From UHGV virus genome UHGV-0126067: a DNA stretch of 10,175 nucleotides. One strand, written 5' to 3'. Position 1 is the first letter of the stretch. Every line of letters starts with the position of its first letter. Below, one piece after another: positions 7,720 to 10,175 of this stretch. The position numbers were made by a program, and so were the translations under genes. The notes beneath the pieces are model-generated. The model made no database searches, was not told the DNA's origin, and saw only the letters and a program-made list of their open reading frames with translations. The DNA is from a virus.

Positions 7720-7745
7720 ATAAAAAAGCCCCGCTATTGCGAGGC
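7720..7745 (-). terminator. Rho-independent terminator-like hairpin overlapping the Rz1 stop codon
   Basis: Minus strand reads GCCTCGC-AATA-GCGGGGC (7-bp stem with one G.U) followed by TTTTTTAT. Confidence 0.5.
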
Positions 7746-8057
7746 TCGTGATGATTCGATTTTCCTGATTGCCGCCTTATCCAGATTGCACTGCCCTAGC
7801 GCCGTATAGAGCTGAGCGTTCAACTCCAGACTTGCCTGCCACGTGAACGGAACCGCCATTCCGGGGATCGGCGTGTCTGCTGTCAGGTCAGCGCTTATCG
7901 GCACCACTGGGGATGGAACGTAAACTGTCTGCGTATTCCCGCAAGCTGTCAGCAGCGGCAGAAGGAACAAGCTGGTTAGCACACGGATCGCCTTCAAGCG
8001 CCTGCCTGATGTAGACAATGCGCGTCTCGCCTTTTTTGGCCAGTTCGTTCTTTGCAT
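7734..8057 (-). CDS. Rz1: Rz1-like o-spanin lipoprotein, overlapping the 3' half of Rz in another frame and extending past its stop
   Basis: Lipobox LLTAC-G preceded by a hydrophobic stretch (VLTSLFLLPLL). The mature part is proline-rich (VYVPSPVVPISADLTADTPIPGMAVP) and has no Asp at +2. Start is uncertain: ATG 8057 gives a long n-region; an internal TTG at 7997, preceded by AGGCAGG, gives a textbook signal peptide MKAIRVLTSLFLLPLLTAC. Confidence 0.65.
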   Translation of the reverse strand: MQRTNWPKKARRALSTSGRRLKAIRVLTSLFLLPLLTACGNTQTVYVPSPVVPISADLTADTPIPGMAVPFTWQASLELNAQLYTALGQCNLDKAAIRKIESSRASQ

Positions 8058-8274
8058 TCTGGGTAGCCTGTGAGATGTCGCGGATGAGGTTCATCGTGGT
8101 GATCACGTTTCTGGTGATCGCCTCCGATGTGTCTGCCCTGACCGTCGCCTTATCGCGCTGGTCTTTGTAGGTGATGGCGTTGTCGCGGTAGTGGTTTACG
8201 AATAAAACCAGCACGCCGATTAACGCCAGCACCAGCAACTGTAGCCAGTAACGCTTAACCAGCGCGCCAATCAC
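7888..8274 (-). CDS. Rz: Rz-like i-spanin (128 aa) with N-terminal transmembrane segment
   Basis: N-terminal TMD (WLQLLVLALIGVLVLFV) followed by VNHYRDNAITYKDQRDK, which closely matches my recollection of lambda Rz (VNHYRDNAITYKAQRDK). GTG start at 8274 overlaps the endolysin TGA stop (GTGA). Confidence 0.8.
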   Translation of the reverse strand: MIGALVKRYWLQLLVLALIGVLVLFVNHYRDNAITYKDQRDKATVRADTSEAITRNVITTMNLIRDISQATQNAKNELAKKGETRIVYIRQALEGDPCANQLVPSAAADSLREYADSLRSIPSGADKR

Positions 8275-8711
8275 GACAGGAACAGAGCGCGCTCCGCCTC
8301 ACGCCGACGGGTCAGCCCATTCAGGACCTTGCCACCTGCTTTATTCCAGCGCAGGAACTCATCGGCTGCGCCAGCGTAATCACCGGCGTTGAGTTTTCGC
8401 AGGAGAGTCGATGTCGATAAAGATCGGGCTCCGAGGTTATAGGTGAACGACACCAGGGCGTCGAATTGCCCCTGAGTCAGACCAACTTTAACCAGGCGAG
8501 ACACGTCGCTTTCGTAGCTGACAAGTCCGGTCTTCAACAGGCGCTCTGCCGTTTCCTGATTAATTGTCATACCGGCACGGATCGGTTTACCGTCGACAGG
8601 CTGAGTCCAGCCATAGCCAATCGTCCACACTCCGACGCTGTCCTGGTACGCGGTAAGCTTGCAGCCTTCGAACTCTTTGATCAGGGCAATGCCTTTATCA
8701 CTGGTTTGCAT
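8271..8711 (-). CDS. Endolysin, T4-lysozyme-type muramidase (P22 gp19-like)
   Basis: 146 aa. Catalytic E/D/T spacing of T4-type lysozymes (EFEGCKLTAYQDSVGVWTIGYG). C-terminus RRREAERALFLS resembles the P22 gp19 C-terminus as I recall it. Follows the holin with a 14-nt overlap. Confidence 0.9.
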   Translation of the reverse strand: MQTSDKGIALIKEFEGCKLTAYQDSVGVWTIGYGWTQPVDGKPIRAGMTINQETAERLLKTGLVSYESDVSRLVKVGLTQGQFDALVSFTYNLGARSLSTSTLLRKLNAGDYAGAADEFLRWNKAGGKVLNGLTRRREAERALFLS

Positions 8712-9015
8712 TCTTCATCCCCGTCAGACGTTCCCAGAAATAGGTCAGAGCCACGGAGCCCATCGCCCCGCTAATGCCTGACGTAACCAGAATCATGTAA
8801 AGGCTCAGCCCACTTTCAACGCTGATCAGTCCACCAATGAGACCGGTAAAGCCGGACACTGCAATTTGTGCCAGCGCATTAATCCAGCTCCAGGTGGCTT
8901 TGTTCTGCTTAACGTCAATAAGGTATCGGACCAGGCCGCCCCAGCATGACAGAGCAAGGACAATCAGCCATGACACTCCGGCAATGCTTTCTTTATCTTG
9001 CATACGTTTAGCCAT
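8698..9015 (-). CDS. Holin, class I (three predicted TMDs), possible dual-start holin/antiholin
   Basis: 105 aa with three hydrophobic segments (SIAGVSWLIVLALSCWGGLV; WSWINALAQIAVSGFTGLIGGLI; LSLYMILVTSGISGAMGSVALTYF) and a charged C-terminal tail. N-terminus is M-A-K-R-M. Strong SD GGAGGTGA sits immediately upstream of ATG 9015. First gene of the lysis cassette. Confidence 0.8.
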   Translation of the reverse strand: MAKRMQDKESIAGVSWLIVLALSCWGGLVRYLIDVKQNKATWSWINALAQIAVSGFTGLIGGLISVESGLSLYMILVTSGISGAMGSVALTYFWERLTGMKNANQ

Positions 9016-9137
9016 ATCACCTCCGAAAGAACGGGGTGCTGTTTGTAGTAAGGGATCAGGCCCTCGGGACGATTTAACAAGAAGGCATGTCGATGATGGT
9101 TCCCGGGACCTTAATATTTACCTCAAAGAGGCATATT

Positions 9138-9734
9138 TTAATTTTGGCAGCGTGGTTGGCTCACTTTGAGAGACTCGATCTTCTTGATAAGCCCTCTGTG
9201 GAGCTGTGGATGCAACTGATCGCAGAGACTCTTATAGCCATGCGCAAGACTCATTTTTTCATTGAACCAAGCGAGATGGGCAAGGTATGGGTCTTCGAAC
9301 ATACCTAAATGCTTGTTCTTACCATTAACCTTTATATCGGCCTGAAATTTTGTTGAGCCTTTTTTTAGGCAAACGCCAATGGGATAATCACCCCTCCGAG
9401 CACCCCTTGAGGTAACAAAGCTATTGAGCGCCTGCGGGATAAAGATGCATGTTTTACTGGAATAAACTTTGTTACCGGGGAAAAGGAGATCCTTATCAAG
9501 CTCACACCCAGGAATGTATTTCGCGTCGTAAAACTTTTTAAATTCGCTAAAAAGATGCCACTCTTCATCAACAACACATCCTTCATAGCTAGGCCTGTAA
9601 CAGACCCCCTCCCCATAACATCTCTTAAGCATCCCATGCCAAACTCTATATGCTCTTATTTTCTTCCCATCCACAAAAACAGGATGCACATCTAACTTTC
9701 CAACTCCGAAAATAAGACTTTCATTTGATTTCAT
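9138..9734 (-). CDS. Accessory (moron-type) protein, 198 aa, with AP2-like C-terminal signature; function unknown
   Basis: ATG at 9734 (MKSNESLIFGVGKLDVHPVF...) with AAAGG upstream; the ORF-track start at 9821 is a TTG inside an inverted repeat. GC is visibly lower than in flanking genes. C-terminal segment GVCLKKGSTKFQADIKVNGKNKHLGMFEDPYLAHLAWF fits an AP2-type pattern. N-terminal domain is Cys/Trp-rich (WHGMLKRCY...CVVDEEWHLFSEF) and unassigned. Confidence 0.65.
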   Translation of the reverse strand: MKSNESLIFGVGKLDVHPVFVDGKKIRAYRVWHGMLKRCYGEGVCYRPSYEGCVVDEEWHLFSEFKKFYDAKYIPGCELDKDLLFPGNKVYSSKTCIFIPQALNSFVTSRGARRGDYPIGVCLKKGSTKFQADIKVNGKNKHLGMFEDPYLAHLAWFNEKMSLAHGYKSLCDQLHPQLHRGLIKKIESLKVSQPRCQN

Positions 9735-9750
9735 GGTTGCGTTTACCTTT

Positions 9751-9837
9751 CTTTGAAATGAACCTTTGCCGCAATGGAAATCAGCCCGTCGAGGCTCGCC
9801 AGCACTAACTGACTTCCTCAAAGGCTCATTTCAAAGG
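9751..9837. repeat. 18-19 bp inverted repeat (arms 9751-9768 and 9819-9837) in the leader of the accessory ORF
   Basis: Plus-strand arm ctttgaaatgaacctttg against the reverse complement of caaaggctcatttcaaagg: one DNA mismatch, which is a G.U pair in the minus-strand RNA. A 50-nt spacer holds a small inner hairpin (AGCC-TCGACG-GGCT). Confidence 0.75.
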
Positions 9838-9877
9838 GTGTGGTTCGACGTGGTTAGAGGCGCATTGCGGTGCGCTG

Positions 9878-9904
9878 AAATAAAAAAGCCAGCGACAGGC
9901 TGGC
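9878..9904 (-). terminator. Rho-independent terminator
   Basis: Minus strand reads GCCAGC-CTGTC-GCTGGC (perfect 6-bp stem, 5-nt loop) followed by TTTTTTATTT. Confidence 0.7.
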
Positions 9905-10120
9905 AATGTGAGGGTAAGGCAATGTCGGCTCTCTGGCCGAAGGGTCCCAGGTAGTGGGTTTAGTTTGTGGTGGCCGGCGCTGCTATCCGGCATTCACGGC
10001 TATCGCTTTACGACGCCATCAGGACATTCACCACAACGAGGATCGCTTTGCCGTGCCAGGGAAATGTACCTGGTCTCACCGGGATGCCGTCACATACTCA
10101 AAGCGATTTCCGTTATGCAG

Positions 10121-10153
10121 AAATGAAAAAGCCACCGGCGTTAACCAGTGGCT
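10121..10153 (-). terminator. Rho-independent terminator, candidate late-operon tR'-like terminator
   Basis: Minus strand reads AGCCACTGG-TTAACG-CCGGTGGCT (9-bp stem with one G.U) followed by TTTTTCATTT. Confidence 0.65.
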
Positions 10154-10175
10154 CTAAATTATTGGTGATGGCTCA

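Follow-up and report, generated by a model that had tools for sequence, protein, structure and literature searches.

The 10,175-nucleotide (nt) stretch of virus genome UHGV-0126067 analysed here, referred to throughout as the window, belongs to a P22-like (Lederbergvirus-type) lambdoid prophage whose late genes lie on the minus strand. A non-coding segment at its end, positions 9878-10175, precedes the lysis and morphogenesis genes (holin, lysozyme, Rz/Rz1, gp3 and the P22-like head genes), which all lie downstream on the same strand. An earlier note, made from the letters of the window, described two minus-strand terminators here (T1 and T2) flanking a GC-rich, structured, non-coding spacer, and likened the layout to the lambdoid late leader, in which polymerase modified by the Q protein reads through the terminator tR'. 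Our sequence comparisons support this general reading: the segment is probably the downstream part of a lambdoid late-operon leader, in which a three-module spacer follows tR' (Table 1).

Table 1. Features of the leader segment and of the genes downstream of it, listed from the end of the window inwards (aa, amino acids; ORF, open reading frame).
Feature	Position	Strand	Description
End of short pR'-to-tR' leader RNA	10156..10175	-	last 20 nt; putative analogue of lambda '6S RNA'; cut by window end
T1, assigned as tR'	10121..10155	-	intrinsic terminator; stem 10128-10155, T-run 10126-10130
Domain 1	10027..10122	-	long irregular hairpin; 5' arm 10099-10122, 3' arm 10027-10050, apical part 10051-10098
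Domain 2	9963..10037	-	closing helix GTTGTGGTG (10029-10037) with CACCACAA (9965-9972); two enclosed hairpins, including GCCGG (9987-9991) / CCGGC (9973-9977)
Conserved tail	9905..9962	-	ACCCACTACCTGGGACCCTTCGGCCAGAGAGCCGACATTGCCTTACCCTCACATT; two small hairpins; ~60 nt
T2	9878..9904	-	second intrinsic terminator; stem 9888-9904, T-run 9882-9887; ends the non-coding cassette
HNH endonuclease gene, optional cargo	9138..9734 including stop (ORF 9141-9734)	-	198 aa; PHROG 953, E = 1e-70
Holin gene	8698..9015	-	PF16083, E = 2e-21; first lysis-cassette gene behind the leader
Lysozyme gene	8271-8711	-	PF00959; follows holin
Rz/Rz1 genes		-	follow lysozyme, same strand as leader
KilA-N/ORF11CD3 gene, DUF2560 gene, gp3 small terminase gene			past Rz/Rz1, downstream of T2; gp3 is PF16677

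A pattern scan resolves T1 into a 12-pair stem (10155..10128) with a 4-nt loop and a T-run, and T2 into a 6-pair stem with five G-C pairs (9904..9888) followed by TTTTTTATTT. There are 18 terminator-like sites in the window against 10.2 +/- 3.3 in shuffled sequences, with T1 and T2 listed first and third, although this count is by itself weak evidence. The fold of T1 has a z-score of -4.14. At the T1 position relatives carry at least seven different terminator alleles, some of which share the loop GGTTAACGCC on compensated stems. For T2, 82 distinct sequences fall mainly into six stem alleles, of which nearly all pair completely, and both sides change in three of the six base pairs. Both minus-strand terminators proposed in the earlier note are thus confirmed, and their stems covary among relatives.

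The note's description of the interval between them as GC-rich and non-coding also stands. Its G+C content is 55-57%, compared with 42-47% in the neighbouring gene; its ORFs span just 55-72 aa, one of them crossing T2, and indels of 1 nt and of 23-56 nt in relatives break the frames. A promoter scan called nothing inside the spacer on either strand. The Rfam covariance-model scan suggested earlier for this region matched no family at gathering score in the window, and at E <= 10 returned terminator-hairpin look-alikes alone from 9700-10175. A literal search of a paper library found neither the tail nor the hairpin sequences printed.

To extend the locus upstream, IMG/VR was scanned for exact copies of the T1 sequence, which gave 14 contigs (L013-L026). 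Eleven match window positions 9875/9878-10175 at 93.6-99.7% identity; among them, L025 matches 9034-10175 at 98.2%. In L025 and the 13 other contigs the sequence that starts at 10156..10175 runs ~140 nt further upstream to a promoter-like site just past a Q gene, so that the extension suggested in the earlier note located the Q-like gene and a candidate for the promoter. The Q gene is of two types. One encodes a 254-aa protein of the phage-82 type (PF03589, E = 9e-45; L025 3445-4209), the other a 207-aa protein assigned to PHROG 753, 'anti-termination protein Q-like' (E = 4e-61; L017 5585-6208), which has no Pfam hit and is not similar to lambda Q. Q genes are also found upstream in L001, L002 and L004-L012. 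The promoter-like sites were identified by hand, each directly after its own Q, as TTTACA-17-TAATCT (L025) or TTGATT-16-CATAAT (L017 type), and the two versions co-vary with the Q family; we infer that they are promoters from their position. Both Q-promoter types merge into one shared leader, with T1 ~160 nt downstream of the promoter-like site. The two unrelated Q/promoter-proximal segments of L013-L026 meet this leader at a mosaic joint ~30-50 nt into its transcribed part.

Since near-identical contigs show a Q gene, a promoter-like site, a leader of ~160 nt and then T1, we assign T1 as tR' with the promoter outside the window, which was the first of two models offered in the earlier note. 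The sequence beyond T1 agrees with this assignment. The junction, a T-run followed by (A/C)WTTCTGCAYAAC, is the same in the window and after the experimentally defined tR' of lambda. Past the tR' T-run lambda reads ATATCTGCACAACAGGTAAGAGCATTG...CAGTGCTCTTTCCGTTGTGCTGAAT, to which CATTTCTGCATAACGGAAATCGCTTTG...CAAAGCGATCCTCGTTGTGGTGAAT of the window is collinear; the fuller junctions read ATATCTGCACAACAGGTAAGAGCATTGAG...CAGTGCTCTTTCCGTTGTGCTGAAT in lambda and, after the T1 T-run, CATTTCTGCATAACGGAAATCGCTTTGAG...CAAAGCGATCCTCGTTGTGGTGAAT in the window. Moreover, contig L064 is a hybrid in which lambda tR' and a lambda-type hairpin are joined to a window-type domain 2, tail and T2. The shared junction and this hybrid together argue that T1 is the positional counterpart of tR' and the spacer that of the lambda post-tR' leader.

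Domain 1 begins right at the T1 T-run. Its arms are a 24-nt imperfect inverted repeat, paired in the minimum-free-energy (MFE) fold, and their lambda equivalents lie at 979-1007 and 1045-1072 of our lambda segment (L200), within lambda 44,778-44,871. The pairing count took in 24 distinct arm pairs, those of the window, lambda and Cronobacter phage JK004 among them, with 19 modelled pairs each (456 cells). Standard pairs fill 93.4% of the cells, and 11 of the 19 pairs are compensatory, changing on both sides. When the partner is offset by 1-3 positions, the paired share is 36-56%, and shuffles that swap arms (mean 81.7%) reached the observed pairing in 0 of 2000 trials. Relatives keep the helix base, CAYAAC(A)GG...CCGTTGTG, while the mid-stem is swapped for unrelated yet always self-complementary sequence, with at least six complete replacements; the apical part likewise carries at least six unrelated inserts. 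At helix positions 10-11 about half of the variants have mismatches, a sign that a small internal loop is conserved there. This pattern is the signature expected of selection as double-stranded RNA irrespective of sequence. The spacer is thus structured, as the earlier note had it, and the stem named there is real, but this best-supported helix (10099-10122 with 10027-10050) had gone unnamed.

The form of domain 1 suggests what it may do. An RNase III hairpin has at least ~20 bp of double-stranded RNA kept as pairing rather than as sequence, and the 24-nt arms of domain 1, at 93.4% pairing, have both properties. Going by the title of a 1988 study by Daniels and colleagues (reference 49 in PMC7547250), the lambda late transcript reportedly carries RNase III sites in vivo, and the hairpin equivalent to domain 1 is the longest helix in lambda's leader. 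By analogy, RNase III would process the late transcript at domain 1 and so part the leader from the lysis mRNA. An origin of the hairpin tip from an enterobacterial repetitive intergenic consensus (ERIC) or a miniature inverted-repeat transposable element (MITE) was considered and rejected: a search of 5,426 complete E. coli genomes with the 73-nt tip of the window type found nothing at E <= 1e-3. A tip of this type does occur in the 94-kb genome of Cronobacter phage JK004 (L003 2501-2587), on a fully compensated stem (TTAGAGCATTG / CAGTGCTCTAA). That copy lies outside the usual Q-holin setting, in a stretch with no annotation that separates divergent hypothetical genes of a far larger phage.

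Domain 2 has an MFE fold with a z-score of -2.57. This fold contains the stem named in the earlier note, GTTGTGGTG...CACCACAA enclosing GCCGG/CCGGC, and the closing helix is kept in lambda with compensatory change (GTTGTGCTG/CAGCACAAC); sibling phages close it with ATTGTGA/TCACAAT or GTTGTGG/CCACAAC. The domain 2 helix and the two small tail hairpins otherwise vary too little in the present set to be informative. At the place of domain 2, siblings L036, L105 and L150 carry canonical T-arms (GGTTCGAGTCC, GGGTTCGAATCCC and GCTGGTTCGACTCCAGC; loop type GTTCRANYC) beside an acceptor-type helix made by the 5' and 3' ends, together with a D-arm-like hairpin. Because these sibling modules hold both arms, domain 2 appears to be tRNA-derived. 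It is not to be filed as a tRNA: ARAGORN, run for tRNA and tmRNA (relaxed and intron modes included) on the window and sibling elements, found nothing in domain 2, and the Rfam tRNA and tmRNA models gave nothing at E <= 10 in the window and, in L150, a 5-bit tmRNA T-arm fragment alone.

The 5' strand of domain 2 overlaps the 3' arm of domain 1, and hence the two helices are mutually exclusive. The shared strand, GTTGTGG(T/C)G, can pair upstream, 10029-10037 with 10112-10117 at the base of the long hairpin, or downstream with 9965-9972 as the domain 2 closing helix. The alternative has a lambda counterpart (L200 1053-1066 with 1134-1147), and both pairings are compensated between lambda and the window phage. 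One may speculate that this permits a processing-dependent refolding or switch, for example one triggered by cleavage.

The tail is strongly conserved. An 18-mer taken from it matches at least 120 IMG/VR contigs, and most columns that lie outside this search word are also >=95% conserved among 82 distinct copies. A census of the slot between T1 and the tail covered 105 loci with enough flank, located by this word. The slot is nearly empty (T1, ~30 nt, tail) in 36 of them and holds a domain-2-type element in 35; in a further 32 loci tRNA genes adjoin the tail, as sets of Asn+Thr, Thr, Phe+Thr, Asn+Gly+Thr or a CAT-anticodon tRNA. In these the search word starts 9-10 nt past the tRNA 3' end, so that the tail follows the tRNA almost directly, and at the other side the tRNA begins ~8 nt after the T1 T-run. 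Common to these loci are two terminators in succession, T1 and tail-T2, which enclose a variable slot. What the earlier note had missed is that the spacer is modular, homologous to the lambda post-tR' leader and set in a slot that holds tRNA genes in sibling phages.

Only 34 of the 5,426 complete E. coli genomes contain a match to the tail-T2 part; IMG/VR proviruses and phages of Enterobacter and Klebsiella carry the module more often. A scan of a genome collection with the 17-base pattern GAGTATGTGACGNCATCC gave 23 matches, where our own estimate was ~70 by chance in 596 Gb on both strands; the Enterobacter match (L194) alone is real. The other 22, from unrelated phyla and with the flanking element absent, look like chance. 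In architecture the tail resembles Hfq-type RNAs and those derived from a 3' external transcribed spacer (3'ETS), with T2 followed by U6 and a trailer position after tRNA in 32 of the 105 loci, and it may by analogy be freed as a small RNA whose 3' end is the terminator hairpin.

T2 is followed in the window by the HNH gene, and the earlier proposal that T2 is a second barrier before a cargo gene was borne out, the cargo being optional. The 198-aa protein has no Pfam hit. Its gene is absent from 11 of the 14 contigs with the same T1-spacer-T2, in which ~9878 joins ~9046 or ~9114, and it follows T2 in nine of the 105 census loci. The same protein is found in many other prophages, always between Q and holin genes and with three different Q families. 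The gene is a mobile insertion between T2 and holin rather than part of the leader, and its product resembles a homing-type endonuclease of the free-standing kind, with the Q-holin interval as its target. The segment that varies by presence or absence is 9138-9875. Within it, just upstream of the HNH start codon, lies an 18-nt inverted repeat of 94% complementarity (9751-9768 / 9819-9836; CTTTGAAATGAACCTTTG / CAAAGGCTCATTTCAAAG), which could be a hairpin in the 5' untranslated region of the gene or its operator.

Two further observations concern the lysis region. Between Rz/Rz1 and the KilA-N/ORF11CD3 gene lies a strong terminator-like hairpin (7726-7747, minus strand; nine pairs, six of them G-C, then TTTTTAT), which would be a third barrier for Q-modified polymerase within the late operon. 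An out-of-frame ORF (7734-8057) is embedded in or overlaps the Rz-like gene (7888-8274, minus strand) and encodes a lipoprotein-like signal, LLPLLTACG, the usual arrangement of an Rz1 o-spanin.

The comparisons establish the anatomy, homology, covariation and synteny of the locus; late transcription would run as follows. The late promoter pR' would lie ~140 nt beyond the window end, directly after the Q gene. Without Q, transcripts would stop at T1 and leave a short RNA of ~160 nt, like lambda 6S RNA; Q-modified RNA polymerase would pass T1, the spacer and T2 and continue into the HNH gene, the lysis cassette and the head genes, and T2 would also back up tR' in the lysogen. In the read-through transcript the first module, a ~24-bp hairpin that starts at the tR' T-run and is homologous to lambda's in position and in the sequence of its base, would be the point at which RNase III parts the leader from the lysis mRNA. 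The second, the putatively tRNA-derived domain, would compete through its closing helix with the 3' arm of that hairpin. The third, the ~60-nt tail ending in T2, is in siblings the trailer of real tRNA genes.

Several points weigh against this account. The Q gene and promoter are visible solely in the near-identical contigs, the window itself ending 20 nt upstream of T1, and a consensus scan calls no promoter in L025 4150-4850, where the hand-picked site has 8 of 12 matches. The 250-nt spacer folds no better than shuffles (z = -1.48), and the case for structure must therefore rest on comparison between sequences; the hairpin alone gives z = -1.85. That the lambda RNase III cleavages fall at the post-tR' hairpin is presumed, the hairpin being the longest helix in the lambda leader. 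Comparison with the lambda and P22 late leaders, along the lines that the earlier note advised, showed the hairpin in lambda and not in P22, which has an annotated pR'-tR', a short leader and no domain 1; the hairpin is hence not essential for late expression. Finally, domain 2 of the window is without a canonical T-loop, having at the place of the T-arm a 5-bp hairpin with the 9-nt loop AUAGCAGCG where TTCRANY would be expected.

The spacer could instead be functionless debris, a decayed tRNA array caught between the leader terminator and the terminator of a former tRNA operon. The modest folding z-score would fit this, as would the real tRNAs and canonical-T-arm modules that siblings hold in the same slot, the lack of a recognisable tRNA in the window version and the 36 loci without slot content. 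Debris would hardly show a domain 1 helix that survives at least six full sequence replacements with compensation and is common to lambda and a Cronobacter phage, nor a domain 2 closing helix compensated in lambda too. Moreover, 11 contigs that differ in their Q gene (two kinds) and in their downstream junction (three kinds) keep the module at 93-99.7% conservation, and we consider decay unlikely.

We give less credence to a separate small-RNA gene that would have a promoter across T1 and T2 as its terminator and would be expressed in the lysogen like Pas, STnc100 and IsrI. The late leaders of relatives do hold terminator-bounded Rfam small RNAs (STnc100, isrI and isrJ), the tail with T2 resembles an Hfq-type 3' end, and Pas small RNAs adjoin holin/lysozyme operons (bioRxiv 10.64898/2026.05.13.724894). 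Yet there is no promoter-like motif and no Rfam family here, even at E <= 10, and the tail abuts tRNA 3' ends in siblings, which points to processing and not to a promoter of its own. Identity with Pas was rejected: the PasA sequence (supplement of PMC8550237) is unrelated, and PasA lies on the strand opposite to its neighbours.

Equally improbable is an explanation at the level of DNA, in which the linkers (TTTCTGCAYAAC, GTTGTGGTGAATG and the tail) are homologous-recombination joints that shuffle cassettes, perhaps aided by the HNH endonuclease, with palindromy incidental. Mosaic boundaries do fall exactly at linker blocks (window 9960, 9995/9999 and 10107), and the HNH gene is inserted immediately after T2. 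The replaced hairpin middle is, however, always self-complementary, which DNA linkers would not need, and most carriers of the module are without the HNH gene.

The second model of the earlier note, in which the late promoter lies within 9905-10120, T2 is tR' and T1 merely ends the Q transcript, can draw on the wider conservation of T2, on its place as the last barrier before the lysis genes and on the primary start that Sakai Stx (Shiga toxin) phages have between tR' and the downstream tRNAs (PMC7547250), but it is very improbable: the interval has no promoter-like site on either strand and is a conserved leader module starting at the T1 T-run, exactly where the lambda hairpin starts after tR'; every extended contig has a Q-linked promoter-like site upstream of T1, in two versions that co-vary with Q; and a sibling tRNA ~8 nt past the T1 T-run leaves no room for a promoter.

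With a late-operon leader as the preferred reading, the transcription map of the prophage is fixed, the late promoter lying outside the window, T1 being tR' and T2 a second barrier. The finding is mostly ordinary: this is a known kind of regulatory region, and lambda itself carries a post-tR' segment. Three features seem to exceed the textbook account: the post-tR' hairpin, which covaries and is shared with lambda, the slot for tRNAs, and the conserved, uncatalogued tail. The stretch after tR', in lambda as well, is no arbitrary spacer: it holds a compensated hairpin and a slot for tRNAs, tRNA-like RNAs or nothing, and the highly conserved tail and terminator close it. A bolder proposal, which we advance tentatively and think doubtful as a whole, is that the T1-T2 interval represents an uncatalogued family of lambdoid late-leader RNAs. 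Its RNase III hairpin and tRNA-shaped domain would share GTTGTGG as a processing-driven switch. During lytic growth the tail with T2 would be set free as a small RNA that acts in trans on transcripts of host or phage, a counterpart of the tRNA 3'ETS small RNAs, and the hairpin tip and domain 2 would be exchangeable 'cargo' positions. Were the tail indeed such a processed RNA, a widespread lytic-phase phage RNA would join the few known (6S, LPR2, StxS and IsrK).

Among known systems the closest is lambda (NC_001416, about 44,590-45,186). It shares the order of Q, promoter, short terminated RNA, intrinsic terminator and a long hairpin from the T-run, with holin downstream. It also shares the hairpin base CTGCAYAAC...GTTGTG, and its second helix reuses GTTGTG(G/C)TG. 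The terminator, the hairpin middle and the apical sequences of lambda are unrelated to those of the window. The window, for its part, has a larger domain 2, the conserved tail and the strong second terminator T2; in their place lambda has different sequence that includes a hairpin, GGCAGGAGG...CCTCCTGCC, with GTTTT behind it. In the extended contigs Q is of the 82 type (PF03589) or of PHROG 753 rather than lambda Q.

The hairpins cut by RNase III in phage transcripts (lambda late transcript; T7 R1.1-type) resemble domain 1 in having about two turns of double-stranded RNA, a small internal loop and conservation of pairing rather than sequence. They likewise sit in the leader between the transcription signals and the first gene. 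The tRNA clusters of lambdoid late leaders, between tR' and stx in Stx phages and as tRNA-Asn/Thr, tRNA-Arg or CAT-anticodon tRNA in siblings, occupy the same slot, from tR' to the lysis or cargo genes. In siblings the same tail and T2 follow them, and sibling domain 2 keeps T-arm, D-arm-like and acceptor-like helices, whereas in the window neither ARAGORN nor the Rfam tRNA model calls a tRNA. The 3'ETS-leuZ of E. coli is a tRNA trailer that ends in the operon terminator; the sibling tail likewise begins immediately behind a tRNA 3' end and finishes in a terminator with a U-tract, with no sequence similarity between the two.

Small RNAs are known from this neighbourhood. Lambdoid phages in general have short pR'-tR' RNAs (PMC7547250). 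The lambda late operon gives rise to the Hfq-bound 6S RNA and to LPR2, a lytic-phase RNA of ~63 nt (bioRxiv 10.1101/2024.10.31.621285), and in P22 the small RNA P22E lies 48 bp upstream of holin gene 13 (PMC13397905). The tail has no sequence similarity to 6S or LPR2; what it shares with these and with P22E is the neighbourhood. A perfect 10-bp hairpin is common to lambda (L200 1232-1261 = 45,031-45,060; GGCAGGAGGT...ACCTCCTGCC) and P22 (L201 ~2090-2125; GGCAAGAG...CTCTTGCC), ~120 nt upstream of holin and followed by GTTTT in lambda only. This hairpin has no counterpart in the window; it may correspond to LPR2 and P22E.

IsrJ, IsrI, STnc100, StxS and PasA-D occupy the same Q-to-holin neighbourhood and are terminator-bounded, and none matches the window; covariance models for isrJ, isrI, STnc100, AgvB, AsxR and Esr41 gave no match there at gathering score. 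On sibling loci Rfam placed isrJ, isrI, STnc100, int-alpA and tRNAs nearby and nothing over the element itself. These Rfam small RNAs of sibling late leaders lie at L001 3805-3878, L002 1707-1912, L144 6766-7350 and L150 638-840. Phage CobraSix has isrJ in the first ~90 nt downstream of Q, the place of the pR'-tR' leader, and isrI, one or two copies of STnc100 and tRNA-Arg stand further down sibling late leaders. The modular layout makes the region immediately before the lysis cassette a hotspot for the exchange of non-coding cargo and homing-endonuclease genes among lambdoid phages, and the interval from Q to holin serves generally as a store of non-coding cassettes bounded by terminators.

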